Source of the DNA: a bacterium
GTDB taxonomy: Bacteria; Eisenbacteria; RBG-16-71-46
Assembly (NCBI GenBank): GCA_043779265.1
Contig: JAYWEM010000048.1
Coordinates: 1-12,364, forward strand
DNA: 12,364 nucleotides
Direction of reading: 5' to 3'
Part shown: positions 2 through 12,331 of the stretch, in pieces
Layout: each line of letters begins with the position of its first letter
How positions within the stretch are numbered: position 1 is the first letter of the stretch
The notes under the pieces: generated by a model
Told to the model about the DNA's origin: nothing
Seen by the model: the letters and a program-made list of their open reading frames with translations, nothing else
The model's database searches: none
Program-made: the position numbers and the translations under genes

Positions 2-544
2 GAAGGGCGTCACAACGAGGGTGTCGGATGCGCCGAATCGCTCCACCTCGACGCCCGATCCGAGGTAGCAGAGGAGGAAGACCGACCCCGGTGCGGCCCC
101 GGTCGTGTCGAGCGCGGCGGGCACGACGCCGGCGAACGACAGATCGATCCGCTGGATGAGGTGGTCCCATCCCGTGATCGCGCGAGTCGCGCGTCCCAAC
201 GTCACCGAGTTGGCGAGGATGCGATCGATGTCCTGAGCCATCGGCAGCCGAGCGGCATCGGGGTGAACGGTCACTTCGGCTGGCGTGATCGTGCTGCTGG
301 CGCGCAGCTCGGCCACGACGAACCCGGTCACGATGGAACGGTAGGTGATCGCCGCCCGAACACTCACGTTGGGATTGGAGCCGACGGGCATCGCCTGGTA
401 GGGCGTGAGGTTGACGCTCTCCATGTCGAGCCGTGTCCAACGGTCCTCGATCTCGGGCTCACCGAGGCAGCCCGAGAGCCCGAGCGCGAGCAGCGCCAGC
501 GGCAACGTGCGCAGAACGCGGCGTCGGATGATGAGCGTCGGCAT
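2..544 (-). CDS. Hypothetical lipoprotein, 3' end truncated by the window edge (not in the supplied ORF track)
   Basis: Translated by hand from ATG at 544 with GGAGG upstream: MPTLIIRRRVLRTLPLALLALGLSGCLGEPEIEDRW...DTLVVTPF. The frame stays open to the edge. Basic N-terminus, hydrophobic stretch and LSGC lipobox; starts 24 bp after the previous gene's stop. Confidence 0.85.
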   Translation of the reverse strand, partial: MPTLIIRRRVLRTLPLALLALGLSGCLGEPEIEDRWTRLDMESVNLTPYQAMPVGSNPNVSVRAAITYRSIVTGFVVAELRASSTITPAEVTVHPDAARLPMAQDIDRILANSVTLGRATRAITGWDHLIQRIDLSFAGVVPAALDTTGAAPGSVFLLCYLGSGVEVERFGASDTLVVTPF

Positions 545-568
545 GGGTTCCTCCCCGGCGTTCGTCCG

Positions 569-2218
569 TCAGCGGACGAGTGCCATCCTCCGGCTGAAGG
601 AAGCTTCCTGGACATCGAGGCGGTAGAAGTAGACGCCCGAGCGGACAGCCTTGCCGTCGCCGTCGGTGCCATCCCAGAACACCTCGTTGATCCCAGCACG
701 GAAGGCCGAGTCGTAGCCGCGAACCTGCCGACCCATGGCGTCGAAGATGCCGAAGCGGGTCTTGCCGACGGCGTCCTGCGGCAGCACGAACGCGATGCGC
801 GTCGAAGGCCGGACCGGGTTGGGCCAGTTCCCGAGGAGCGCGGCGCGGCTGGCCTGAGCCACGATGCCGCCTTCGCTCAGGCGGATCGGCGACAGCGCGA
901 CAGCCGAGGCGCCGTTCGTGTACGTGGAGGTCGCCGTCACCTTGAGGACGGCATCGACCACGCCCGAGACGGCGCGGAGGTCGGCAGGGGAGAGCGGCAG
1001 ACGATGGACGCCGGCATCGAGCGTGCCGGCCGAGCGGCGCAGCAGGATCTGGCCGGTCGCCGCATCACTCAGCTCCCACTGGAGCGCAGCACGGTCGGTG
1101 AGCGTGAAGCTCGCTTCGGGCGCGGCACCGCCAGCGACCGCGAGGCCTGCGACCTCGACACCCAGGTTCCACAGCCGCAGCCCCGTCTGGTCCGACCATT
1201 CGTCGAGCGACACGGCGCTCGCCTGGCCGATGCGGGTGACCGAGCCGTCACGATGATCGCGGACGTTGAAGAAGGGCACCCGGAAGCTGCGCGGGCGGCT
1301 CATCGCATCGCGCAGTTCGGAGACCACTTGGAGGGACGGCCCGAACTTGCGGACCGAGCCACGCTGCGGCGATGCGGCGTAGAGGTTGCCCCACTGATCG
1401 GTGTCGAGCGACGTCACGACGCCGCCCGAGGCCGCAGTCTCCCCGATCCACGCGAGCTGTCCGCCCTCGAGACGCAGATGGACGATGCGCTGGTTGTGGG
1501 CGTCAGCGACGTAGACATCCGGGGTATGGACCCCATCGCTTCGGCCGAGCGTGATCGCGGTGGGGCCGGCGAAGCGGCCGCGGCCACTGCCGAGACCTCC
1601 GACGATGGCCAGACGCCGCGGTGCACGGGCGCCGAGCGAGAACGCGGAGACCTGATTGCCGCCCGTCTCGGCCACGAGGAGGAGGTCGTCCGCCGGACTG
1701 AACGGTGTACCCGCGTCGGAGACGGCGACGTCATAAGGTCCCTGGACGCCTTCGATCACCTGGATCGGCGTGAGCGTCATGCGCCCGAGCTCGGTGCGGA
1801 CCTGGAGGATGAGGACCCGATCGTGACCCGTATCGGCGACGTAGAGCCGGTCCATCTCATCCAGGGTCAGTCCGCGAGGCTCCTTGAAGGTCCCGAACGC
1901 GCTGCCGGCGCCGTCATACGCTTGCAGGCTCTTGCCCATCTCCCCGATGACGAGACGGTTCCACGCCGGATCCGAGACGATCTGGAAGTGGCGTGACTCG
2001 ACGTAGGGGAATCGGTCGTGCACATCGACCTGGGAGAGCGTCACCGTCGCGTACGGCTGCTGGAAGAGCTTCTTGCCCAGTTTGTCGCGGGCGACTGCAC
2101 GAGTGAGCGACTCGAGCCCGAGATCGGGCGCGACCGGGGTGCGGTCGAAAGTGCCCGCAACAGCGGGCGAAGCGAGGGCCCCGATGAGGCCCGTCATCAG
2201 CAGGAAGCGTCGTCGCAT
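569..2218 (-). CDS. Secreted NHL-repeat beta-propeller protein with C-terminal FlgD-Ig / T9SS type-A-like sorting domain
   Basis: ATG at 2218 with GAGGAG RBS; signal peptide MRRRFLLMTGLIGALASPAVA. NHL repeats: FKEPRGLTLDEMDRLYVADTGHDRV and FAGPTAI...VYVADAHNQRI. C-terminus NWPNP...IFDAMGRQVR...WDGTDGDGKAVRSGVYFYRL...RRMALVR. Confidence 0.85.
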   Translation of the reverse strand: MRRRFLLMTGLIGALASPAVAGTFDRTPVAPDLGLESLTRAVARDKLGKKLFQQPYATVTLSQVDVHDRFPYVESRHFQIVSDPAWNRLVIGEMGKSLQAYDGAGSAFGTFKEPRGLTLDEMDRLYVADTGHDRVLILQVRTELGRMTLTPIQVIEGVQGPYDVAVSDAGTPFSPADDLLLVAETGGNQVSAFSLGARAPRRLAIVGGLGSGRGRFAGPTAITLGRSDGVHTPDVYVADAHNQRIVHLRLEGGQLAWIGETAASGGVVTSLDTDQWGNLYAASPQRGSVRKFGPSLQVVSELRDAMSRPRSFRVPFFNVRDHRDGSVTRIGQASAVSLDEWSDQTGLRLWNLGVEVAGLAVAGGAAPEASFTLTDRAALQWELSDAATGQILLRRSAGTLDAGVHRLPLSPADLRAVSGVVDAVLKVTATSTYTNGASAVALSPIRLSEGGIVAQASRAALLGNWPNPVRPSTRIAFVLPQDAVGKTRFGIFDAMGRQVRGYDSAFRAGINEVFWDGTDGDGKAVRSGVYFYRLDVQEASFSRRMALVR

Positions 2219-2245
2219 GTGAGACTCCTCTCTCCCCTGCCACAC

Positions 2246-3391
2246 CTACTGGAAACGGAAGTCCAGTCCGGTCTCGAGGATGTTGGCCGAGTAGTTGTTG
2301 CGGTTGAAGTAGCGTTCGTAGCTCAGCCACACCGCGAACCGCCGCATCCAGGGCGACGGCACCGCAAGGGCCTCCAAGTCGGCGTGGAGTGCCACGCCGA
2401 ACAGGTGCGACGACAGCTCATCCATGCGGTAGTCCCCGGAGCGATAGCCATCGATCCCGGTCGTCGTCGCGTACTGATCCCGATAGAAGTCAGCGGCGGT
2501 CTGCGTGTACCAGCGATAGAGGTAGCGAGAGGAGAGCCCGTTCGTGATGTACTGGCTCAGGCGCGACTCGATCTCGTGCGAATCGATGCCCCAGTCGTCG
2601 TTGTACAGGCGATAGGCGAGCTTGATGCTCGAGCGCTGCGAGAAGTACTGGTGCAGCCGGACGAAGGCATCGCGACGGAAACGGTCGTCGGGGTGGCGCT
2701 CCGAGACGTTGGTGCCGCCGGCGTAGACGTTGCGATAGGCGTTGTGCTGAAGGCCGTGAACCCGATTGACCTCGGCACCCACACGCACGAGCGTCGATGG
2801 GGAGAGCACGCCGGTACCGACGATGTTCCCGTGCCAGGTCGTGCGCATGCGCGCGCCGGTCTGGGTGTCGTCGTCGGCCAGTGGGTCGATGTGATCCCAG
2901 CCGTAGCTCGATCCGATGGACAGGTTGAGGGCCTGCTCGCGCAGGTCGCGGCTCCACTTGCCACCCAGCTGCTGGGCCAGGTAGTCGCTCTCGGTCGAGA
3001 CGTAGTACTCGAGGCTCGCGGGGCCTCGCGCCAGCGACGCCGTGACCTCGTTCCTCACTTTGACGAAGTCCTGGAACGCGTCGCCGGAGATCGGGCGACT
3101 CGCGGTGGTGATGGCGTCCAGCGCCTGCTGTGTGCCAGCGGGTGCCGCGATGCCCGGGATGAGCACGCGCTCGTTGTTGAAGTGAAAGGACAGCGTCGAG
3201 GCGCCGGGCATGGGCACGTCCGCGTCGCTCGTCATCGAACGCACGCTGACCTGATCCGAGTCGGTGAACATGCGGAACATCGTGCCGAGCGTGGGCTCGG
3301 TGACCATGGGCACCGCACCGCATGCCGAGGCCCCCGCCGCGGAAGCGGCGATCGCCAGAGCCCACGGGCGGATGCGCGAGGTCACTTGCAC
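2246..3391 (-). CDS. DUF3570-family outer-membrane beta-barrel protein
   Basis: GTG start at 3391 (or 3385) overlaps the DUF4266 stop; the longer ORF to 3934 overlaps two real genes. Family-like motifs DAITTAS, STESDY, ERHPDDR, YRLYNDDWGIDSH, YRWYTQTAADFY, SGDYRM. Amphipathic strands ending in LDFRFQ; sits in the usual order after TlpA and DUF4266. Confidence 0.8.
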   Translation of the reverse strand: MQVTSRIRPWALAIAASAAGASACGAVPMVTEPTLGTMFRMFTDSDQVSVRSMTSDADVPMPGASTLSFHFNNERVLIPGIAAPAGTQQALDAITTASRPISGDAFQDFVKVRNEVTASLARGPASLEYYVSTESDYLAQQLGGKWSRDLREQALNLSIGSSYGWDHIDPLADDDTQTGARMRTTWHGNIVGTGVLSPSTLVRVGAEVNRVHGLQHNAYRNVYAGGTNVSERHPDDRFRRDAFVRLHQYFSQRSSIKLAYRLYNDDWGIDSHEIESRLSQYITNGLSSRYLYRWYTQTAADFYRDQYATTTGIDGYRSGDYRMDELSSHLFGVALHADLEALAVPSPWMRRFAVWLSYERYFNRNNYSANILETGLDFRFQ

Positions 3392-3621
3392 GCGCAGCCC
3401 CCACCATCCCCACCGATACCGCCGGTCGAGCCCTCGCGGGCCTCCCACGCCTTCAACTTGCGTGCGTTCTCCCGGCCATCCGCCTCGAACGCCATGATGC
3501 GATCGACGAGGCGCTCGCGCTGATAGGCTTGGACGGCGCACCCATTGGCCGTGATCAGCCAAGCGAGCGACAGCACGAGCAGCCCGACGAGGCGGGCGGG
3601 AGACCGGCGTGTGCGCGTCAT
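3382..3621 (-). CDS. DUF4266-family small (lipo)protein
   Basis: 79 aa; signal with ANGC, then VQAYQRERL..IM and a C-terminal REGSTGGIGGDGGGCACK matching the family's Gly-rich CxC tail. ATGA overlap with the upstream gene. Confidence 0.85.
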   Translation of the reverse strand: MTRTRRSPARLVGLLVLSLAWLITANGCAVQAYQRERLVDRIMAFEADGRENARKLKAWEAREGSTGGIGGDGGGCACK

Positions 3622-4241
3622 CGCGCGCCTCCCTCGGCCGACTGGGTCGGCGGTGCGTGGACGAGCAGGCGGCGAGTCGTGGCTTCGAGCGTGGCCAGTG
3701 CCTTGGCGTCCGAATCATGCGTCGACCACGCGACACGGCCCTGCTGATCGAGCACGACGGTGTACGGGATGCTCGGCAGGTCGAGCGTGCGAGCGAGCCC
3801 GTTGGGGCCATCGTGGGCGATGGGGAGCGTGAGGCCGAACTTGTCGCGGAAACGCCGGGCGTTGGCGACTTCGGCGTCGATCGACACGGCCACGACGCGA
3901 ACTCCCTGCTTGGAGAGCGAGGCGTGCAGCGCATCGAGCTGGGGCAGCTCCTTGCGGCAGGGCGAACACCAGCTCGCCCAGAAGTTGAGGATCACGACCT
4001 GGCCCTCGGAGCTTCGGAGCGAGAACGCCTTGCCATCCAGCGTTCGCAGCGAATGGGTCCGGAGGGCCTCCTGGATCCGTGGCGCGGGCACGGTGTGAGC
4101 CGGGGAGTTCTTGGCCAGGCTCGCGACCGGCGTCGTGGCGAGTGCGCCGAGAGATGCGGCACCCATGAGGGCCCACATCTGGCGACTCGCGAGCGAGGCG
4201 CGATAACGGCCCAGATCGGGAACGCGGGATCGGTCGGTCAC
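3618..4241 (-). CDS. TlpA/ResA-family thiol-disulfide oxidoreductase
   Basis: GQVVILNFWASWCSPCRKELP active site, VVAVSID, cis-Pro loop SIPYTVVLDQQGRV, N-terminal hydrophobic segment. GTG start with GAGGG upstream; exact start uncertain. Confidence 0.92.
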   Translation of the reverse strand: MTDRSRVPDLGRYRASLASRQMWALMGAASLGALATTPVASLAKNSPAHTVPAPRIQEALRTHSLRTLDGKAFSLRSSEGQVVILNFWASWCSPCRKELPQLDALHASLSKQGVRVVAVSIDAEVANARRFRDKFGLTLPIAHDGPNGLARTLDLPSIPYTVVLDQQGRVAWSTHDSDAKALATLEATTRRLLVHAPPTQSAEGGAR

Positions 4242-4251
4242 GAGAACCCTC

Positions 4252-6261
4252 TCATCGGTACTGGGCGCCGAGCAGCACCCAGAGGTTGAACTTGCGCTTC
4301 TCGGCGGCCGTCAGTGAGTCGGGTCCGGCCGGATGCGAACCCATGCCGGTGCGCGAACCGAGGCCCATCACGTAGTCGACCAGCTTCGATCGGCGCGGGA
4401 AGCCGGGGCGCGTGACCTGTTGCGTCATGTCCATCGACTCGCCCGACAGGCTGATGTACCCACGCGGGAAGATGCGCATCATCCGTGTCGTGTCGGGGAC
4501 GTTGGCGAGATCGAGGTTGCCGGGCGCCGGCAGCCCGGGCCCGGGTGAGACGTGGCAGGTCTCGCACTTGTTGCCGACGATGGCGCCGATGTCGGTCTGC
4601 CAGCTGATGATCTGAGCCGAACTGACCGGTATGTTGAGGTCGTGCGCCGGCAACATGGCGGCCTGTGGGTTGGGGTTCGTCGAGACGAGCCCGCCAGGAC
4701 CGCGATCCTCATGGCACCCGGTGCACTGCGAGAACTCCTCGCCGGGGCGCACGTAGAGATGCGTGCGCTTGACCACGAAGCCCCGCCCATCGGAGTCCAG
4801 CGTCGCGAAGCTGATCGGCGTATTGGCCGGGACCCGGAATCGCACCGAGCCATCGGGCTGCACCGGAACGAAGCCCAGCAGCGCACGCTTCTCGTACTCG
4901 TTCGCGGAGATGTTGTTCATCTCGCCGCCCATCGTGGGCCGGGCGATGAGGACCGCGATACTGTCGATGGCATCGACGCCACGGATCGGCCGCTCCTGAC
5001 CGTCCGAGGCACCGCGATTGAACACGTCCTGAGCCAGGAACGTGCCGTAGTCGAGGTTGCGGTCGATCGTCGAGGCGATGACCGGAGGCCGCGGCCGCGG
5101 CGCAAGCAACTGGGCGTCGTACTCGTTCGAGTTGGGGTCGTTGTAGAGGAAGGTCAGATTGCCGAGCGCGAACGTGGCGGGGTCGCCGATCGTACCGCCA
5201 CCCGTCTGCGTGATCGTGAACGTGTAGAGCCCGTAGTCGACGTCGTCCTCGGTGGCCGCCGGCAACGTGTACGAACCGACGAAGCGGGTGCCGCCGAGTG
5301 GATGCGGGTACTTGAAGGCACCGTACGGCCAGGGCTCGCCGTTGTTGTTGACCTGCGCCGTCAGCACGTCCCAGTGGAGCTGGCTCGCGCCCATGACCGG
5401 ATCCGCCGGGCCCTGCTCGGTCTTCAGCACCGCGATCGGGCCGGCGTCCTCGTTGATCATCGTCGACTCGATGGCGATCAGGCGGCCATCGGGCATCGGC
5501 GTCGCGTGGAAGAAGTTGCGGCCATGCGGCCCGTACATGTGGAACGTGCCGCTGCCGTCCGGGTGCGTGAAAAAGAGAGGGAAGCGGTTGAAGTCGCCGA
5601 AGTGCTCCCAGCGTGTGTAGACGATGCGGCCATCGGGGAGCAGCTGCGGATCGAAGTCGTCGCTCTGGTTGAAGCTGATGCGTTCGATGGCGGAGCCATC
5701 AGCGATACAGGTGTAGAGCACTTCGGCGGGCGAGTGGTTGTACTCGTCCATCTCGTTCGCGCGCGAGCTCGTGAACATGATCCGATCATCCGGGAGGTAG
5801 AGCGGATCGAAGTCATGGCCGCCACCGAACGTGACCTGTCGCATCCCGGTGCCATCGGCACGGATCTCGTAGATGTTGCGCCAGGTGCCACCCGAGGGGC
5901 GCATCGAGAACAGGATGCGCGTGCCATCGAACGAGACGCAGGGATCCGAGACCGATGCGCCGACGAAATTGGTGATCGGCGTCACGAGCCCGTCAGGTGA
6001 GATGGGGGAGAGCTTGTACAGATTGCCCGGCGCCCACGAACGATTCAGGGTCTCCTCGCCGGTGGTCTTGACGAAGACGAGTGCCTCGGTCGTTTCCTCG
6101 ACCTGGATGAGATCGTCGGGTGCGCTCTCACGGCAGCCCGTGGCCGTGAGGCCGAGAGCCAGTGACGTGAGAAGCAGCCCGAACACGGCGAAACGCTCAG
6201 GTTGCGAAGGTCGCTTGTGCATGATGTGCGATGGCCCTCCCGCTTCGATCCGGCCGGTCAT
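4252..6261 (-). CDS. HzsA-related (hydrazine synthase alpha middle-domain-like) beta-propeller lipoprotein with two c-type heme motifs
   Basis: Lipobox-like ATGC; PD40/TolB-like repeats (DPCVSFDGTRILFS, DFDPLYLPDDRIMFTSSR, DPQLLPDGRIVYTRWEH). LLGFVPVQPDGSVRFRVPANTPISFATLDSDG followed by VRPGE..CTGCHE is typical of HZS_alpha-like proteins; second motif CETCH. Start 6261 (ATGA overlap) or 6222. Confidence 0.8.
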   Translation of the reverse strand: MTGRIEAGGPSHIMHKRPSQPERFAVFGLLLTSLALGLTATGCRESAPDDLIQVEETTEALVFVKTTGEETLNRSWAPGNLYKLSPISPDGLVTPITNFVGASVSDPCVSFDGTRILFSMRPSGGTWRNIYEIRADGTGMRQVTFGGGHDFDPLYLPDDRIMFTSSRANEMDEYNHSPAEVLYTCIADGSAIERISFNQSDDFDPQLLPDGRIVYTRWEHFGDFNRFPLFFTHPDGSGTFHMYGPHGRNFFHATPMPDGRLIAIESTMINEDAGPIAVLKTEQGPADPVMGASQLHWDVLTAQVNNNGEPWPYGAFKYPHPLGGTRFVGSYTLPAATEDDVDYGLYTFTITQTGGGTIGDPATFALGNLTFLYNDPNSNEYDAQLLAPRPRPPVIASTIDRNLDYGTFLAQDVFNRGASDGQERPIRGVDAIDSIAVLIARPTMGGEMNNISANEYEKRALLGFVPVQPDGSVRFRVPANTPISFATLDSDGRGFVVKRTHLYVRPGEEFSQCTGCHEDRGPGGLVSTNPNPQAAMLPAHDLNIPVSSAQIISWQTDIGAIVGNKCETCHVSPGPGLPAPGNLDLANVPDTTRMMRIFPRGYISLSGESMDMTQQVTRPGFPRRSKLVDYVMGLGSRTGMGSHPAGPDSLTAAEKRKFNLWVLLGAQYR

Positions 6262-6848
6262 GGCTGGATGGAGCGATAGAATGCGAGCCCGATCGTTCCC
6301 TGGGCGTACTCGTAGGCAACGATGCCTTCGCGATCCCTCTGGGATCCGATCACCGTCGCGTGTCGCAACTCCGCACGGACCGCCAGGTCATTGCGGATGT
6401 ACATCTCGAGCCCGCCCCCCACGGCGAGCGCGTTCTTCGTCACCGGCTTGGCGTTGACCGCGAGGCCGGGGAACACCATCAACATCCCGTAGCCGAGACT
6501 CGCGTACGGCTGGAACCGACCTGCGAACGGATGCCGGACGATGGCGCTCACGCTGTGCAGCACCGCATGCACGGACTGGCCGGGGTTGTGCCCCAGCTGC
6601 GCCTCGTACCCAAGCCAACGCTCCGGGTTGTAGGACAGCCGGAGCGCATAGAGCTCGGTGGAACCGAAGAACCCATACGCGGGGCTGAGGCTCACTCGGT
6701 GCTGGAACGGGCGCGGTCCGGATTCGAGTCGGTAGGGGTGCGAGGCCAACTCGGGGTTGAGCGCCTCGAGCACGGGCATCTCCTTCGCGATCGAAGGAGA
6801 TGCCGAGCCGACCAGGAGTGCGAGCGCCCCGAGCGCGAGCGCTCTCAA
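6258..6848 (-). CDS. Small outer-membrane beta-barrel protein (OmpA-TM/OmpW-like fold)
   Basis: Signal peptide MRALALGALALLVGSASPSIA; barrel motifs FQPYASLGYG, LAVGGGLEMYIRNDLAVRAELR, GTIGLAFY. TTGA overlap with the upstream stop. Confidence 0.8.
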   Translation of the reverse strand: MRALALGALALLVGSASPSIAKEMPVLEALNPELASHPYRLESGPRPFQHRVSLSPAYGFFGSTELYALRLSYNPERWLGYEAQLGHNPGQSVHAVLHSVSAIVRHPFAGRFQPYASLGYGMLMVFPGLAVNAKPVTKNALAVGGGLEMYIRNDLAVRAELRHATVIGSQRDREGIVAYEYAQGTIGLAFYRSIQP

Positions 6849-7297
6849 GGCTGGACCCCGGCGAGGATCCAGCCGCGGATGGCCTGATAGCCCGTATCAC
6901 TCGTGTCGGCGAAGGCCTTGAACCCATGCGGCGTGCCGCCCGCACCCAGTTCGAGCGGTTCAGTCAGGATGGGACTCTCGTCCGGCGACGTCGCCGACAC
7001 TTGGAGCACGACCTGATCGAAGTCGAATCGAAGGTCCTTGGCCGAGGCGGGAGAGAGCTGGAGCGTTCCGCGGATCCCGCCGCCGTGACAGTCGCCCTCG
7101 GCGTCGCAGCCGCGGTTCATCAGGACGGGCGCGACATCGGACTCGAATCGCTCGAAGCTCAACGGGGGCGAGACACCGCCGCCGGGCGGAGGTGGAGGCG
7201 CGGTGGGCGAACTGCAGCCCTGCAGGGCACCCGGCAGCGTCAGGAGGGCGATCATGATCGCCGCCCCGCGCCGCAAGCTGTCCGGATTCCGCGACAT
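6845..7297 (-). CDS. Lipoprotein with cytochrome c-like domain (atypical CX5CH motif)
   Basis: ATG at 7297 with GAGGTG RBS; LQGC lipobox and Pro-rich linker, then SFERFESDVAPVLMNRGCDAEGDCHGG...SPILTEP...PHG...IRGWILAG, resembling planctomycete-type cytochrome c domains. Confidence 0.7.
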   Translation of the reverse strand: MSRNPDSLRRGAAIMIALLTLPGALQGCSSPTAPPPPPGGGVSPPLSFERFESDVAPVLMNRGCDAEGDCHGGGIRGTLQLSPASAKDLRFDFDQVVLQVSATSPDESPILTEPLELGAGGTPHGFKAFADTSDTGYQAIRGWILAGVQP

Positions 7298-7465
7298 GCC
7301 ACGATCACCTCGTGTCGGTCGTGCAGAGTGCGGGAACGGCCATGCGCGCTGCATGGTCGGAGGCTCCGCATGTCTCGCATCACTCAAAGCCCGGCCTCCA
7401 TGCGAGTTGCGTCCCTGGAAGGGCATGCCCGAGCGTTCGATCGGGCGGTGGCCGGCGGTGTCAGC

Positions 7466-7480
7466 GCAAGAGCCGGGCCA
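7466..7480 (-). promoter_or_regulatory. Putative sigma-54 (-24/-12) promoter for the cytochrome/DUF3570 operon
   Basis: Minus strand reads TGGCCCGGCTCTTGC against consensus TGGCACG-N4-TTGC: one mismatch, exact GG-N10-GC spacing, intergenic, pointing toward the operon. Confidence 0.65.
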
Positions 7481-7605
7481 TCTGTTCTCGACGTATCGGT
7501 TGACTCAAGGGGAGCTTGAGATTGCGGTCGCTGTTCGCGTGCGATGGATCGAATCGATGCAGGCCCGTGGACCACTCGCCCGGGCGACTCGCATGGCGGA
7601 TGGGC

Positions 7606-8646
7606 TCAGAAATAGCGAACGCGCACGAGCCCTTGGGCGGCCGGGTCCAGCTCGAAAGCATCACGCAGAATGCTCTCCACCCACAGCGTATCCACGCCAT
7701 CCGCCCCAGCCTCGATCAGGATCACATCGAGATCCCGCCGAGTCGCAGCGACGCGCCTCGCCTCCGAGCCACCCAGAACGAACAAGGCAGTGCCCCAGGC
7801 ATCGGCCTCCATCGCCTGTTCCGCGATGACGGTCACCGCGATGAGGCCGGACGCGGGGCGACCCGACCTCGGGTCGAGGATGTGTCCATAGGTCCGGCCG
7901 TCCTGTGCGACGAACTGCTCGTACTTGCCGGAGGTGGCGATTGCACGGTCGGAAAGTGCCAATCGGCCGAGCGAGGGCGTGCGGTTCCGCGGGTCACGCA
8001 AGCCGATTCGCCAGTGCGGGGCGCCAGGCGGACTGCCCATCGCACGCATGTTGCCCGAGACATCCACCAGTGCGGCGCGCACGCCGTGGGCGATCAGGGA
8101 CTCGGCGGCACAATCGACAGCGTGTCCCTTCGCGATCCCGCCCAGGTCGATCCGGACGCCCGCGCGATCGAACTCGATCGTGCCACTGCGTACATGGTGA
8201 TCGAAGCGTGCGGGGCCGATGAGCGCGCGCGCCGCGACGACTTCAGCCTCGCTCGGAACGCGCTTCACGCCGCCGAGGAAACCCCAGGCGCGGACGAGAG
8301 GCTCCACCGTGATATCGAATGCTCCCTGACTCTCGCCGCCGATGCGGACGGCGGCGGCGAGCACCCGGTTGACCTGGGGTTGGACGATCACCCGGCCATT
8401 TGCGGCAAGTCGATTGATCCTCGCCACCTCACTCGTCTCGGTCCAGTTGCTCATGAGCGAGTCGACTTGCGTCAGGGCGAGCGTGGCCGAGCGAGCCGGC
8501 GCGAGGGTCTCGAGCGAATCCGTGCTCACGATCGCGATCGTCGCGTAGGTCCCCATCGTGCGGATCGAGTGGGTGACGCTACGGGGCGCGGGTGGGCTCG
8601 AGAGCCCGGCGAGCATCAGTGCCGTGAGAACGATGGGTGAGGACAC
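7606..8646 (-). CDS. apbE: FAD:protein FMN transferase
   Basis: Motifs MGT, SEVARIN, GAFDITVEPLVRAWGF, IDLGGIAKG, ATSGKYE, YGHILDPRSG, ADAWGTA; N-terminal export signal. GTG start uncertain. Confidence 0.95.
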   Translation of the reverse strand: MSSPIVLTALMLAGLSSPPAPRSVTHSIRTMGTYATIAIVSTDSLETLAPARSATLALTQVDSLMSNWTETSEVARINRLAANGRVIVQPQVNRVLAAAVRIGGESQGAFDITVEPLVRAWGFLGGVKRVPSEAEVVAARALIGPARFDHHVRSGTIEFDRAGVRIDLGGIAKGHAVDCAAESLIAHGVRAALVDVSGNMRAMGSPPGAPHWRIGLRDPRNRTPSLGRLALSDRAIATSGKYEQFVAQDGRTYGHILDPRSGRPASGLIAVTVIAEQAMEADAWGTALFVLGGSEARRVAATRRDLDVILIEAGADGVDTLWVESILRDAFELDPAAQGLVRVRYF

Positions 8647-8702
8647 GCTCGGGGTATCGGCCAGGCGGGCGAGGGAGGACAGGATGCCTCTCGAGAACGC
8701 GA

Positions 8703-8732
8703 ACGGCCCCGCCGGGCGAGCGACGGGGCCGT
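8703..8732 (-). terminator. GC-rich hairpin, possible intrinsic terminator between the coiled-coil gene and apbE
   Basis: Minus strand ACGGCCCCGTCG...CGGCGGGGCCGT stem, 17 nt after the stop at 8750, followed by a weak U-tract (TCGCGTTCTC). Confidence 0.5.
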
Positions 8733-8749
8733 CTGCATTCGAGGTCCCC

Positions 8750-9619
8750 TCAGGTCGTGACGATGACGACGTGTTTCACGGTCCTGAATTGGGCCGGGTC
8801 GAGGATCCGGAGCACGGTCTCACCGGGGAGCACTTGCAGCTCATAGCTGGCGGCCGGTTGGTCGCTCACCACCTGGGCTCGGGCCGAAGGGATACGGATC
8901 TCGGTCTGGTGGTCGGTATCGAGCGGCGTGAAGAGATCGGAATCGATACGGCCGGTGGCCTCGAGCGTTCGGCCGAGTCCGAGCACGCCGCCCTTGGCGA
9001 TGGCGACGCCGGAATCAGTCAGACGCTTCTTGTTCCCGATGGCGTAGAAGACCGTGCCCAACTCGGATCGACGGGCCTCGAGGGCCTGGTCGCGCGCCTC
9101 GATCACGCCATGATTGGTCTCCACCTCGGCGACAAGTCCCGTGACGCGCGTCTCGAGCTGGGCGACCGCCTGGGTCAGGGCCGTGACTTGGGTCTCCTTC
9201 TCGGACACGTTCTTCTTGAGGCTGGCGACCATGCGCTCGAGCCCGGCGGCCCGAACGCCGCTCTTCGCGAGCTGGCGATCGAGTTCGAGGATGCGCGTCT
9301 TGGCCCGATCGATCCCGGCCTTGACCACGGAGATCCGAGCCAAGGTGGCGTCGCCGCGGGTCTCGGAGAGCTTCTGCTCGCTCGTGAGATCCGAGTCGAG
9401 CAGTTGCCCGTCACCACCCAGCATGATGGCGCTCAGGCTGTCCTGGATCGCCGCGATCTCGTCGATCGCATGGCTGTAGCGGGTGCGGGTCTGATTCTCC
9501 TCGTTCTGGAGCGTCGCGACATCGCCCTGACTCCGCTCCAACTGCATGTAGAGCCAGGCGCCGCCGCCTGCGAGGGCCAGAACGAGAACGGTGAGGATGG
9601 GGAGCAGGAGCTTGCGCAT
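8750..9619 (-). CDS. Membrane-anchored coiled-coil protein, possibly related to the Bacteroidota Cbp1-like family
   Basis: ATG at 9619 with AAGGAG RBS; N-terminal TM/signal, long heptad region, and C-terminal globular domain (TVFYAIGNKKRL...GGVLGLG...FTPLD...P..SY.L...LRILDP..F...KHVVI). Family assignment is from memory only. Confidence 0.7.
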   Translation of the reverse strand: MRKLLLPILTVLVLALAGGGAWLYMQLERSQGDVATLQNEENQTRTRYSHAIDEIAAIQDSLSAIMLGGDGQLLDSDLTSEQKLSETRGDATLARISVVKAGIDRAKTRILELDRQLAKSGVRAAGLERMVASLKKNVSEKETQVTALTQAVAQLETRVTGLVAEVETNHGVIEARDQALEARRSELGTVFYAIGNKKRLTDSGVAIAKGGVLGLGRTLEATGRIDSDLFTPLDTDHQTEIRIPSARAQVVSDQPAASYELQVLPGETVLRILDPAQFRTVKHVVIVTT

Positions 9620-9780
9620 GATCGATCTCTCCTTGTCGGCGTCACATCCGGGTGAATGGTGGGGAGGAGTGGCCGGGTCGCGCCGTGTCCCCGGTCGAGT
9701 CACTCTACCCCTCACCCCATCATCCGACGCCGGCGCAAGCCAGCCTTGACGCAGGCTTCACGCCCGAGTCGGCACCGGTC

Positions 9781-11601
9781 TCAGGCGCCCTGCTTCTTCT
9801 CGATGCGCGCCCACGGGTCTTTCAGCGTGACCGTGCGATTGAACACCAGAGCGCCTGGTTTGGAGTCGCGGACATCCGGTACGAAGTATCCCGTCCGCTC
9901 GAACTGCACCGGCACGCCGGCGGGCGAGTCGGCGAGCGAGGGCTCGAGTCGACAGCCCTGCAGCACCTCGAGGGAGGTCGGGTTCAAGTCGGCGAGGAAG
10001 TCCCCGTCCCCCGACGCCGCGTCGGGATTCTCGCTCATGAAGAGGATGTCGTAGAGCCGGACCTCGGCTTCCACGGCGTGCGCAGCGGAGACCCAGTGGA
10101 TGGTCGCCTTCACCTTGCGGCCATCCGGGGGATTCCCATGGCGTGTCGCGGGATCATGCGTGGCCCGAACTTCGACGATCCGACCGGAGTCGTCCTTGAT
10201 CACGCTCGTGCAGCGGATCCAGTAGGCGCCACGAAGGCGCACCTCGACGCCGGGCGAGAGCCGGAAGTACTTGGGCGGGGGGACCTCGCGGAAGTCATCC
10301 TCGTCGATCCAAAGTTCACGCGAGAACGGGACCTTGCGCTCGCCCGCAGCCTCGTCCTCGGGATTGTTGACGAGTTCCATCCACTCGATGCGATCCGCTG
10401 GGTAGTCCTCGATGACGACCTTGATCGGCCGCAGCACCGCCATGCGGCGCAGCGCATGGCGGTTCAGGTCCTCGCGGACGCAGTGCTCGAGCAGCGCCAG
10501 TTCGACGCGATTCTCCCGGCGCGCGATGCCGATCCGCTCCGCGAAATCGCGCAGTGCGCGAGCGGGATAGCCGCGCCGCCGCATCGCGCTGATCGTCGGC
10601 ATGCGCGGGTCATCCCAACCCCGGACATGTCCCTCCTGGACGAGTCGCAGGAACTTCCGCTTGCTCATGACCGTGTGCGTCAGGTTCAGACGGGCGAACT
10701 CGTACTGGTGTGGAACCGGGCGGGGCAGCTCGAGGGAGGCGAGCAGCCAATCGTAGAGCGGCCGATGCGGGACGAACTCGAGCGTGCAGATGCTGTGCGT
10801 GATCCCCTCGATGTAGTCCGACAGGCCATGCGCGAAGTCGTACAGAGGATAGATGCACCAGGTGTCGCCGGTGTGATGGTGATGCGCATGGCGGATACGG
10901 TAGAGGACCGGATCACGGAGCCACACGTTGGGGGACGCCACATCGATGCGGGCGCGCAGCGTGCGGCTGCCATCCGGGAACTCGCCCGCCTTCATGCGAG
11001 CGAACAGAGCGAGGCTCTCCGCGACGCTGCGATCGCGATATCGGCTGGGCTCGCTCGCCTCACCCGGCGCGCCGCGCATGCGATCGACTTCATCGGCCGT
11101 GTGATCGCAGACGTACGCCGCACCCTTCTCGATCAGACGGACGGCGAATGCATGCAACGGCTCGAAGTAATCGGACGCACGGAAGGTCTCCACGGCGATG
11201 CCGTCACCGGGTGCAGCGGCGGCGATGTGGAAGTCGTCGCCCGTCGCAAGCGGCGCCTCACCCTTGCGCTTGAAGCCGAGGTTCTCGTCGGCCCATCCCG
11301 AGACGAGCCAGCGGACGTCGGCGACGATCGACTCCTCGTACTCGATGTCCTCCTTCGCCGGATTCGTGTCATCCATGCGCAGGTGGCAGACGCCGCCGAA
11401 CTGCTTGGCGATCCCGACGTTCAGGCAGATCGACTTGGCGTGCCCGACGTGCAGATAGCCGTTGGGCTCGGGAGGGAAGCGGGTGATGACGCGGCTGTGC
11501 GCTCCGCTGGCCAGATCGGCCTTCACGATCTCGCGGATGAAATCCTCGCGCTCGGCTGCTCCATCGCCAGCGGCTGCGTGCGGGGCTTCCGTCTCGGACA
11601 T
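9781..11601 (-). CDS. glnS: Glutamine--tRNA ligase
   Basis: TRFPPEPNGYLHVGHAKSICLN (HIGH motif), WCIYPLYDFAH, THSICTLEF, VMSKRK, GWDDPRMPTI, KVKATIHWVS, QFERTGYF, FNRTVTLKD. ATG at 11601 with GAAGG RBS. Confidence 0.97.
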   Translation of the reverse strand: MSETEAPHAAAGDGAAEREDFIREIVKADLASGAHSRVITRFPPEPNGYLHVGHAKSICLNVGIAKQFGGVCHLRMDDTNPAKEDIEYEESIVADVRWLVSGWADENLGFKRKGEAPLATGDDFHIAAAAPGDGIAVETFRASDYFEPLHAFAVRLIEKGAAYVCDHTADEVDRMRGAPGEASEPSRYRDRSVAESLALFARMKAGEFPDGSRTLRARIDVASPNVWLRDPVLYRIRHAHHHHTGDTWCIYPLYDFAHGLSDYIEGITHSICTLEFVPHRPLYDWLLASLELPRPVPHQYEFARLNLTHTVMSKRKFLRLVQEGHVRGWDDPRMPTISAMRRRGYPARALRDFAERIGIARRENRVELALLEHCVREDLNRHALRRMAVLRPIKVVIEDYPADRIEWMELVNNPEDEAAGERKVPFSRELWIDEDDFREVPPPKYFRLSPGVEVRLRGAYWIRCTSVIKDDSGRIVEVRATHDPATRHGNPPDGRKVKATIHWVSAAHAVEAEVRLYDILFMSENPDAASGDGDFLADLNPTSLEVLQGCRLEPSLADSPAGVPVQFERTGYFVPDVRDSKPGALVFNRTVTLKDPWARIEKKQGA

Positions 11602-11767
11602 GGCACCTTCGGGGTGGGGCGTGGGGAGTGGCTTCACGATCCGGGGCAGCGAACCGCATCCGCGCAGGTCTGTCCAGCGATCGGGATCGGGAGTAACCTG
11701 CCCGGCTTCAAGCGGTTCCCGCCCTCGGCACTCAGCACGGTGGCGGACCCTTTCATGGAGGCAAGCC

Positions 11768-12331
11768 ATGCTGCGGAAGATCCTGATCGCCCTCGTCGTC
11801 CTGGTCCTCGTGTTCGTCGGCTTCGTCGCGACCCGCCCGGCTCACTTCAACATCGAGCGCTCCGCCCAGATCGCCGCGAGCCCCGAAGGGATCTATCCGC
11901 ACGTCGCCGACTTCCACCAATGGGCCGACTGGTCACCGTGGGACAAGATCGACTCGACGATGGTCAAGACGATCACCGGGGATGCCATGGCGGTCGGCTC
12001 CGAGTATCACTGGGTCGGCACAGGTGAAGCAGGTGAGGGCCGCATGACCATCACGGCCACGACACCGCCCAACTCGCTCACCATCAAGCTCGACTTCCTC
12101 AAGCCGTTCGTGGCGACGAACACGACTGCCTTCGCGATCGACGGTTCGGCCGATGGCTCCACGGTGAAGTGGACGATGTCCGGCGAGAACAACTTCATGG
12201 CGAAGGCCATGGGCGTGTTCATGAACATGGATCAGTTGGTGGGCGGGGACTTCGAGAAGGGTCTCGAGGACCTCAAGCGGATCACCGAGGCCGAGGCCGC
12301 CGCCGCCGTCGACACGACCGCATCGATGTGA
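11768..12331 (+). CDS. SRPBCC (polyketide cyclase/dehydrase, START-like) family protein with N-terminal membrane anchor
   Basis: ATG at 11768 with GGAGG RBS; MLRKILIALVVLVLVFVGFVATRP, IERSAQIAASPE, WSPW, GEGRMTI, LDFLKPF, TVKWTM, MDQLVGGDFEKGL..LK. Confidence 0.9.
   Translation: MLRKILIALVVLVLVFVGFVATRPAHFNIERSAQIAASPEGIYPHVADFHQWADWSPWDKIDSTMVKTITGDAMAVGSEYHWVGTGEAGEGRMTITATTPPNSLTIKLDFLKPFVATNTTAFAIDGSADGSTVKWTMSGENNFMAKAMGVFMNMDQLVGGDFEKGLEDLKRITEAEAAAAVDTTASM

Follow-up and report, generated by a model that had tools for sequence, protein, structure and literature searches.

A conserved outer-membrane gene cluster of Eisenbacteria combines a DUF3570 flavinylation-type module with an HzsA-like di-haem lipoprotein

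We analysed a 12,364-bp stretch of DNA (the window) that makes up the whole of contig JAYWEM010000048.1 (C48) in the genome of an Eisenbacteria bacterium (assembly GCA_043779265.1; 3.43 Mb in 195 contigs, 92% complete). The window, of approximately 67% G+C, harbours nine co-directional and densely packed genes on its minus strand. They code for the predicted flavin mononucleotide (FMN) transferase ApbE, a small lipoprotein with a haem-type motif (p193), a probable small outer-membrane β-barrel (OMP196), a di-haem lipoprotein related to the alpha subunit of hydrazine synthase (HzsA-like), an exported thioredoxin-like protein (TlpA), a DUF4266 lipoprotein, a predicted DUF3570 barrel, an NHL propeller (NHL558) and a last lipoprotein (lipo181; Table 1). 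Their gene content, domain assignments, conserved redox motifs and conserved association lead us to read them as one conserved outer-membrane module, in which the flavin and thiol proteins are the predicted partner of the HzsA-like lipoprotein. We infer that they would form a relay running from thiols to a covalent flavin and on to haem, with a substrate at or near the cell surface. We hold this reading with roughly even confidence.

The closest relatives of the HzsA-like gene are found in metagenome-assembled genomes (MAGs) labelled Candidatus Eisenbacteria or Eiseniibacteriota, with 84–89% identity. The eight genes from p193 to lipo181 occur in the order of the window in 19 of the 28 genome loci that contain an HzsA-like relative, and lipo181 follows the NHL gene in 21 of these 28. 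Six of the remaining nine loci are cut by a contig end, one is devoid only of a tblastn match for the 79-residue DUF4266 protein, and the other two, with 42% identity, are rearranged. The same order was found in nearly all metagenome loci of sufficient reach, in a set of 80 that comprises close relatives only (62–79% identical). Among loci long enough to contain the gene in question, p193 is present in 61/62, OMP196 in 69/70, TlpA in 50/51, DUF4266 in 41/46, DUF3570 in 37/38, NHL558 in 31/31 and lipo181 in 21/22. The flanking genes vary from locus to locus and include Lon-like, MprF-like and DinB genes, or DsbD with a redoxin; thus, the block persists in changing surroundings. The cluster is patchy within genera (e.g. 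5/9 and 8/11) and is therefore accessory.

The second phylum was covered by a search of 151 genomes centred on that of a KSB1-labelled MAG. Full-length HzsA-like orthologues, approximately 39–45% identical, are encoded in 25 of these genomes. The HzsA-like, TlpA, DUF4266, DUF3570 and propeller genes, the last with a tail of the type IX secretion system (T9SS), occur together in 14 of 20 regions; three of the other six end with their contig, and the remaining three are devoid of one short tblastn match. At least two gene orders are found, HzsA-like–TlpA–DUF4266–DUF3570–NHL and DUF3570–NHL–HzsA-like–TlpA–DUF4266. The synteny survey thus agrees with the initial annotation, made from the DNA alone, in that these genes form one unit, which is conserved, with its order permuted in the second phylum. 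The OMP196 profile matches the barrel of an SH3-barrel protein of ~295 residues in 16 of 22 second-phylum loci, and no match was obtained in the second-phylum loci with the p193, lipo181 and ApbE profiles. The core shared between the phyla is the set of HzsA-like, TlpA, DUF4266, short DUF3570 and NHL propeller proteins, together with small barrels; p193 and lipo181 occur only in the Eisenbacteria/Krumholzibacteria version. Of all neighbours, ApbE is the one whose presence varies most. Its inclusion in the joined module, as initially annotated, holds for the window and for 33 of 43 metagenome loci but does not extend to the second phylum, in which no ApbE gene lies within ~9 kb.

The presence and absence of the HzsA-like and DUF3570 genes coincide. 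Among 151 genomes of the window's own phylum, 43 have both, none has the HzsA-like gene only, 36 have DUF3570 only and 72 have neither; the corresponding numbers for the 151 second-phylum genomes are 24, 1, 10 and 116, which for the latter set gives a Fisher p of 6.6e-19 in a statistic that ignores kinship. Lack of co-occurrence had been set beforehand as the outcome that would undo the link between the two genes, and the association was found in 43/43 genomes of the own phylum and 24/25 of the second phylum that harbour the HzsA-like gene. In the single exception, the contig is cut beside that gene. In the own phylum, DUF3570 is encoded on the same contig as the HzsA-like protein and within ~3 kb of it in 39 of 43 genomes, the other four being at contig breaks. 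Alternatively, shared ancestry might be the sole cause of the proximity, and the haem genes would then have no functional link to the flavin module. Most of the compared loci do come from one phylum, in which ancestry alone can keep an order, but the flanks vary around a preserved block, the set persists in the second phylum at ~40% identity and in different orders, and the presence and absence patterns coincide, so that we find mere common descent scarcely credible. That a short DUF3570 lies beside the HzsA-like gene wherever contigs allow says that the predicted flavin barrel and the haem enzyme would work together.

The HzsA-like protein is composed of a PD40/TolB-type propeller, an HZS_alpha middle domain with a CTGCH motif and a C-terminal domain that harbours a CETCH motif. 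It matches chain A of Protein Data Bank (PDB) entry 5c2v at an E value of 5.1e-12, in four stretches that span the propeller, the middle and the C-terminal domains. The lipobox C43, the haem-motif residues C513/C516/H517 and C566/C569/H570, and H643 are invariant in 23 sequences. So are W218, H220, H246 and H252 of the propeller (RWEH, GPH and NFFH, residues 218–252, at approximately 5506–5610 of the window), in the same 23 sequences and across two phyla; these conserved residues may constitute a site for a metal or a substrate. Directly after CxGCH, each of the 23 sequences has E/T/G, D/N/P/G, R and any residue in turn, with R520 invariant and no Tyr. The substrate site would best be sought at the three histidines of the propeller and at the Arg downstream of the first haem motif. 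Genes resembling CcmC and CcmF, for haem c attachment, are present in the genome.

We rejected the possibility that this protein is a hydrazine synthase. According to the available text of Hagglund et al. (Genome Biol Evol 2025, PMC12758564), a Tyr four residues past the first CXXCH His of HzsA ligates haem alpha-I, and that Tyr is missing here. In addition, the score against the hydrazine synthase equivalog NF052339 is 69.7 bits for a cut-off of 800, and no genes for beta and gamma subunits, separate or fused, are adjacent; the string encodes no other CXXCH protein.

Additional copies and remnants of the gene were observed. A metagenome record (L096, positions 8001–9992) codes for an HzsA-like paralogue of 66% identity without any cluster gene adjoining it, and a full cluster is present on another contig (L062) of the same assembly. 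In a same-family relative (G238:C1:2510335-2513307), the HzsA-like match contains two TGA stops and is accompanied by a DUF3570 remnant of 55 residues (E 6e-11); this copy looks like a decaying cluster. Finally, the genome of the window itself encodes a distant HZS_alpha paralogue (C131:17045-19000, locus L002; 34.3 bits, 33% identity over the propeller stretch), truncated by the contig end and with no adjoining DUF3570.

The small lipoprotein p193 is on record as a 150-residue form with 534 close relatives, none of them named, and it belongs to no Pfam or NCBIfam family. C65, C71-H72-GGG and H125 are invariant in 22 orthologues, which share C-x(4 or 5)-C-H-G-G-G, a G-G-x-x-H further on, and a Trp residue; all 22 thus have CX5CH or CX4CH, and p193 has no CXXCH. 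A profile search of 1.84 billion representatives yielded 1162 relatives at E ≤0.001, of which 175 at ≤1e-10. The best 150 of these 1162 contain 205 domain stretches, in which the equivalent site is CX4CH in 112, CX2CH in 55, CX5CH in 30, CX3CH in three, CX7CH in one and absent in four. Several of 38 multi-domain members scanned with Pfam match the families PSCyt1, Cytochrom_C, Cytochrome_CBB3 or Paired_CXXCH_1; six match HZS_alpha, and six more PD40 only. Moreover, 24 of the best 150 also match the HzsA-like profile. These proteins, of 490–1871 residues, combine an HzsA-like body with one, two or three p193-like domains in a single chain, and such 'Rosetta stone' fusions, which occur in other bacteria, are our main new evidence that p193 would work with the HzsA-like protein.

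Taken with the CX2CH relatives, the fusions also suggest the identity of p193 as a c-type cytochrome domain in which the two Cys are spaced more widely, and the Atlas lead for p193 is a PSCyt1 cluster with a score of 0.94. As for the spacing, CX3CH and CX4CH are among the haem-binding variants listed in the available part of PMC11492766. The direct fold evidence failed. Foldseek with the p193 model returned nothing in the PDB at E ≤0.001, and the highest Z in the wide fold search VIA was 3.5, FoxE (Z 3.0) and PccH (Z 2.4) being within the noise. A profile search of the PDB gave only a chance match to a neuraminidase (E 0.94), and an hhalign comparison with the HzsA-like family gave a probability of 3% (E 0.015) over the C-terminal part only. 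The call of a cytochrome in the initial annotation is supported indirectly, by the homologous domains with CXXCH, their Pfam cytochrome c matches and the HzsA-like fusions, and finds no backing in the motif of p193 itself or in its fold. Two of the three haem c sites proposed initially are canonical CXXCH motifs (CTGCH at 513 and CETCH at 566 of the HzsA-like protein), and the third is the atypical CX5CH of p193.

The flavin part of the module is defined by ApbE and DUF3570. ApbE scores 261.9 bits for a cut-off of 25.6 and covers positions 1–265 of the 266-position profile. A scan of the genome, at its 92% completeness, revealed one ApbE, one DUF3570 and no FMN_bind or DUF2271 protein over cut-off, so that the neighbouring DUF3570 protein is the only recognised substrate family of this ApbE. 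The DUF3570 protein scores 129.1 bits for a cut-off of 25, with its best stretch at positions 213–381 of the 427-position profile (75–381 in the genome scan). The copies encoded beside the HzsA-like gene are always short, with ~97–146 bits and the N-terminal part of the profile missing. In contrast, stand-alone copies mostly have at least 250 bits over the full profile. One relative (L135) has both kinds, the second in a classical TlpA–DUF3570–ApbE module.

According to the available text of Meheust et al. (eLife 2021, PMC8238504), ApbE flavinylates DUF3570 proteins at [S/T]GA[S/T], of which the Chlorobium luteolum protein has two. The DUF3570 protein of the window does not have two conserved motifs of this type; rather, it harbours D92-A-I-T-T-A-S98-R-P, in which A97, S98, R99 and P100 are invariant in 23 aligned sequences. 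The motif is TTAS in 18 of 23 orthologues, SGAS in two, and TAAS, TGAS and SSAS in one each. At the equivalent position, each of the 19 second-phylum copies has a single conserved motif of the canonical type, TGAS or SGAS. In the Eisenbacteria form, therefore, a lone site of the flavinylation type has its Gly replaced by Thr.

We obtained an AlphaFold2 model of the DUF3570 protein with 16 long strands, a predicted local distance difference test score (pLDDT) of 80.7 and a predicted TM score (pTM) of 0.75. Its best Foldseek match is the BcsC barrel (E 1.1e-10, TM 0.60), followed by OprD-family porins and OmpG. The motif is located in a connection of 30 residues between strands 3 and 4, which contains a short helix and has pLDDT values of 61–72. 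The odd connections have 4, 30, 3, 12, 22, 4, 28 and 4 residues and the even ones 3, 2, 4, 2, 4, 4 and 13; thus, long connections are on the odd side only, except for the even connection of 13 residues. In outer-membrane barrels, the termini and the short turns are usually periplasmic. By this rule, the flavinylation-type loop of the model would face outward or fold into the barrel lumen, which would require flavinylation to take place before barrel assembly. This order of events fits the recovery of flavinylated DUF3570 protein mainly from the insoluble pellet, with purification under denaturing conditions, as given in the available text of PMC8238504. A further extension of the relay, which we offer tentatively and consider unlikely, is a flavin-in-barrel conduit across the outer membrane. 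It would take electrons from periplasmic thiols (DsbD, TlpA and the CXC tail of DUF4266), through FMN on a lumenal or outward loop of the 16-strand barrel, to a surface di-haem HzsA-like enzyme and the cytochrome domain detachable from it, as well as to a propeller anchored through T9SS.

The thiol part of the module consists of TlpA and DUF4266. TlpA harbours CSPC at residues 92–95 and exceeds the cut-offs of AhpC-TSA, Redoxin and Thioredoxin_8. Both NCBIfam models score below their cut-offs, ResA, the best match (6.2e-26), with 91.3 of 170 bits and TlpA with 69.3 of 230. The DUF4266 protein scores 47.5 bits for a cut-off of 27 and has its lipobox Cys at position 28. Its Gly-rich tail ends in CAC-K, with the CAC at 76–78; G74, G75, C76, A77 and C78 are invariant in 24 sequences. 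No DsbD is encoded in the cluster of the window, and the sole DsbD_TM match of the genome is on contig C70. A DsbD gene and a redoxin gene lie divergently upstream of the cluster in only one relative (L024).

In the proposed relay, the DsbD protein of contig C70 would reduce the CSPC of TlpA, which would exchange with the C-terminal CAC on the flexible Gly-rich tail of DUF4266. The latter would in turn reduce the FMN placed by ApbE on Ser98 of DUF3570. The flavin would split electron pairs and pass single electrons to the haems of p193 and of the HzsA-like enzyme, and the NHL propeller, at the surface by its T9SS sorting tail, would be a substrate-binding or docking partner. We favour this outward, reductive direction because DsbD is found in many published clusters and in the one relative mentioned above.

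The opposite direction, an oxidising disulfide relay of the outer membrane, appears unlikely to us. It would lead from substrate thiols to TlpA and DUF4266, then to FMN on DUF3570, to haem c of p193 and the HzsA-like protein, and finally to an oxidant. The order of cofactors, namely a CXC thiol, a flavin and a c-type haem, is that of Mia40–Erv1–cytochrome c, and the motifs are conserved. However, TlpA/ResA-type proteins are reductants where they have been characterized, and NHL558, the obvious secreted neighbour, contains no cysteine. DsbD is unlinked in the window and in most of the loci examined, and 316 published DUF3570 clusters have no nearby DsbD, but 227 others include this supplier of reductant (numbers from the available text of PMC8238504), and DsbD and a redoxin adjoin the cluster of the relative L024.

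An alternative use of the thiols would be maturation or maintenance. TlpA would then keep the cysteines of apo-cytochromes, including those of CX4-5CH, in the reduced state, as ResA and CcmG do, and the barrel would mainly anchor or export lipoproteins. ResA is indeed the best NCBIfam match of the thioredoxin, albeit below cut-off; the atypical haem motif could need dedicated handling; and the best fold match of the barrel model is an export channel, BcsC. Nevertheless, the TlpA–DUF4266–DUF3570–ApbE set is present in hundreds of clusters without a named cytochrome partner in the available text of PMC8238504, and it forms a separate module in L135, so that its thiol and flavin chemistry would be independent of a cytochrome. 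The second phylum keeps the set without p193, and it is hard to see what a covalent flavin would contribute to haem ligation. We regard such a maturation function as distinctly unlikely.

NHL558 is a cysteine-free, six-bladed NHL propeller that matches NHL propellers of the PDB down to E values of 4.4e-14. Its tail scores 30.6 bits against FlgD_ig (cut-off 27) and 19.1 bits against TIGR04183, below the cut-off of 23, and the last 93 residues have 87 tblastn matches in the genome, self included. A PorU sortase is encoded in the genome (457 bits for a cut-off of 420). By these features, NHL558 is probably a T9SS cargo, and it would therefore be located at the surface. We also considered NHL558 as a stand-in for HzsB and rejected it, because it matches NHL propellers only and chain B of 5c2v is not among its 44 PDB matches. 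OMP196 scores 23.5 bits against OMP_b-brl (PF13505), below the cut-off of 28.7, and 21 of 22 orthologues match this family at E ≤0.01, the best at 1.9e-9. It is probably a small OmpA/OmpW-type barrel instead of the porin annotated initially. The lipo181 protein belongs to no Pfam or NCBIfam family, and its Atlas scores do not exceed 0.84.

The gene string had been taken to end at base 2 of the window. We found instead that the operon carries on to contig C90 of the same genome, a continuity deduced from relatives, as the two contigs are not joined in the assembly. Contig C90 harbours co-directional genes for a 213-residue protein, a protein with an SH3 domain and an outer-membrane protein (OMP) barrel, a 191-residue and a 307-residue protein, tetratricopeptide repeat (TPR) proteins of 1626 and 348 residues, a 122-residue protein and a MotA/TolQ/ExbB-type protein, the last truncated by the contig end. 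These genes follow lipo181 in matching order in 20 of the 20 relatives that reach past lipo181.

This continuation raises the possibility that the redox genes belong, as one sub-module, to a larger machine spanning the envelope and composed of the SH3-barrel protein, small barrels, very large TPR proteins and MotA/TolQ/ExbB. The main task of such a machine would be mechanical or one of transport, for example in secretion, in the assembly of the surface or in a motion resembling gliding, and the redox proteins would be no more than its sensor or regulator. The genes on C90, their conserved order, the T9SS tail of the propeller and the presence of PorU are all consistent with this. However, the four annotated second-phylum loci have no MotA/ExbB gene and one small TPR gene only. 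Moreover, in two of the three second-phylum loci scanned with Pfam it is two small barrels and an SH3 protein, encoded upstream of the HzsA-like gene, that accompany the redox genes, and three different covalent or fixed redox cofactors would be a heavy investment for a sensor. We therefore consider the larger machine quite improbable.

Several points weigh against the relay that we propose. The motif of the window's DUF3570 protein is TTAS rather than [S/T]GA[S/T], and there is one motif where the C. luteolum protein has two. The topology of the loop rests on the secondary structure of the model, with pLDDT values of 61–72 at the motif, and on a general rule. CX5CH is outside the haem-binding spacings listed in the available part of PMC11492766, the p193 model (pLDDT 67.7) matches no cytochrome fold, and the Pfam cytochrome models match none of the 22 p193 orthologues. 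ApbE is missing near the cluster in the second phylum and in 10 of 43 metagenome loci, and DsbD is unlinked in the window. The relay also leaves unexplained the TPR and MotA/ExbB genes into which the operon extends. As related genomes are not independent, there are fewer independent events than the profile counts suggest. Finally, electron supply from thiols would be slow, and repair or maturation fits as well as catalysis.

As to the organization of the locus, the junctions from p193 through lipo181 are -4, -4, +10, -4, -10, 0 and +24 bp, so that OMP196 overlaps each of its neighbours by 4 bp, and apbE is separated from p193 by 308 bp. We recomputed these junctions, and the tight co-directional arrangement initially described, including its coordinate pairs, was exact. 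A signal peptide or a lipobox was seen by eye at the N-terminus of each product, as had been claimed, and the domain calls were borne out by profile hidden Markov model searches for ApbE, HZS_alpha, PD40, DUF4266, DUF3570, NHL, FlgD_ig and the thioredoxin families. A scan of the window for promoters and terminators gave a number of sites not above that of shuffled sequences, and no Rfam family or tRNA was found in the window. The four sequencing runs listed as covering positions 500–8700 are all of DNA, with no RNA run among them. Upstream of the likely ATG of DUF3570 at 3391, the reading frame continues for another 181 codons without a stop, across DUF4266 and part of TlpA (2246–3934, minus strand); calling the longest open reading frame (ORF) in this case yields a false protein of 562 residues.

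Table 1. Genes of the 12,364-bp window, with export signals judged by eye from the N-termini
Product	Position	Strand	Assignment and matches	Export signal	Redox motif
ApbE	7606-8646	-	Predicted exported FAD:protein FMN transferase; Pfam PF02424, 8.7e-78	Signal peptide	
p193	6845-7426 (longest ORF); 6845-7297 from likely start ATG 7297, 150 residues	-	Lipoprotein	Lipobox Cys	CX5CH
OMP196	6258-6848	-	Probable small outer-membrane β-barrel; OMP_b-brl, 23.5 bits	Signal peptide	
HzsA-like	4252-6261	-	Di-haem lipoprotein; HZS_alpha (PF18582), 1.7e-16, and PD40	Lipobox Cys	CTGCH, CETCH
TlpA	3618-4241	-	TlpA/ResA-like exported thioredoxin; AhpC-TSA, 1.3e-22; Redoxin, 1e-20; Thioredoxin_8, 1.4e-15	Signal peptide	CSPC
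DUF4266	3382-3621	-	Lipoprotein; PF14086, 3.4e-12	Lipobox Cys	C-terminal CAC
DUF3570	2246-3391	-	Short-type DUF3570; PF12094, 2.6e-37	Possibly lipobox Cys	TTAS, 95-98
NHL558	569-2245	-	NHL propeller with T9SS-type tail; NHL, 4.5e-9; FlgD_ig, 3.5e-7	Signal peptide	
lipo181	2-544	-	Lipoprotein without known family, truncated by contig end	Lipobox Cys	
Cbp1-family protein	8750-9715	-	321-residue coiled-coil membrane protein or lipoprotein; NCBIfam Cbp1 family collagen-binding glycoprotein adhesin, 105.8 bits for a cut-off of 90		
Glutaminyl-tRNA synthetase	9781-11769	-			
SRPBCC protein	11462-12331	+	SRPBCC/Polyketide_cyc2		

The remaining part of the window codes for a Cbp1-family protein, a glutaminyl-tRNA synthetase and an SRPBCC protein. 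The longest ORF of the latter overlaps the 5' end of the synthetase gene, and its true start is probably well downstream of 11462. These two genes are no conserved neighbours of the string. The Cbp1-family gene recurs in two related loci only (L011 and L012), with its orthologue ~1.8 kb upstream of ApbE. In one relative with a complete chromosome (L026), positions 7351–8419 code for a DUF4920 protein and a PepSY_TM-like protein just upstream of p193, and ApbE lies at a distance of 8.4 kb. The published classes of transmembrane electron-transfer proteins with a link to flavinylation include PepSY-like proteins.

The association gives a testable partner to two orphan families, namely DUF3570, a proven ApbE substrate whose function is unknown, and the HZS_alpha proteins found outside anammox bacteria. 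The non-anammox homologues of HzsA have been described as a wide family of unknown function (PMC10732223). In the available text of PMC12758564, they comprise hundreds of proteins, with more than 600 structural hits, of which none has a tested or experimentally confirmed function, and have lost the Tyr591/Cys303 features of haem alpha-I. If the flavin is indeed carried in the barrel, this would represent a new route for electrons through the outer membrane, and an alternative to Mtr-type conduits without multihaem proteins that is widespread in uncultured FCB-group phyla. The p193 family would add the CX4CH and CX5CH spacings to a large, unnamed family of cytochrome-like domains, with 1162 representative clusters.

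The core of ApbE, DUF3570, DUF4266 and a thioredoxin-like protein was, as the initial annotation stated, already established as clusters of unknown function: the available text of Meheust et al. (PMC8238504), published in 2021, describes clusters in which DUF3570 is accompanied by a thioredoxin-like protein and by DUF4266, a CXC protein; 227 of them include DsbD and 316 do not, and their function is left open. We found in the literature searched no description of a system in which this core is joined by an HzsA-like cytochrome, by a detachable cytochrome-like domain and by a propeller with a T9SS tail, in line with the initial annotation, to which no described system of this composition was known; the neighbour table of PMC8238504 may, however, already list HZS_alpha. 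Neither thioredoxin nor DUF3570 is mentioned in the available text of PMC12758564. The window resembles the 2021 clusters in that the four families are encoded together, the CXC of DUF4266 is C-terminal, the flavinylation-type motif of DUF3570 contains a Ser and no FMN_bind substrate is encoded in the genome. In contrast to what the available text of PMC8238504 describes, the DUF3570 protein of the window is short and low-scoring, with a single TTAS, DsbD is unlinked, and the module is embedded among genes for the HzsA-like protein, a cytochrome-like lipoprotein, small barrels and the T9SS propeller.

The HzsA-like protein shares with HzsA (chain A of 5c2v) a propeller followed by a middle and a C-terminal CXXCH domain, with matches along the whole chain, and it is devoid of the Tyr ligand of haem alpha-I, like the non-anammox homologues in the available text of PMC12758564. 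Unlike HzsA, it is a lipoprotein, has no beta- or gamma-like gene nearby and is encoded next to thioredoxin and flavin-barrel genes. NHLRC2 and the chloroplast protein SOQ1, which are among the PDB matches of NHL558, similarly have a six-bladed NHL propeller beside a thioredoxin-fold domain in an extracytoplasmic location. In the window, however, the two are encoded by separate genes, and the likeness is that of the generic NHL fold only (E 1.9e-6 to 1.7e-4), with no hint of a substrate.

In the mitochondrial relay, electrons pass from Mia40, with its CPC motif, to the flavin of Erv1, a non-covalent FAD, and then to cytochrome c. The predicted order of carriers in the window, a CXC-type thiol, a flavin and a c-type haem, is the same, but the proteins are unrelated, and the flavin would be a phosphoester-linked FMN on a barrel. 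Mtr-type conduits (MtrAB/MtrC) consist of a multihaem cytochrome threaded through a barrel of ~26 strands. As in these systems, an outer-membrane barrel is encoded in the window together with redox lipoproteins of predicted periplasmic and surface location. In contrast, the window encodes no multihaem cytochrome, with a maximum of two haem motifs per protein; its predicted barrel has 16 strands, and in place of a haem wire the candidate carrier would be one covalent FMN on a loop.

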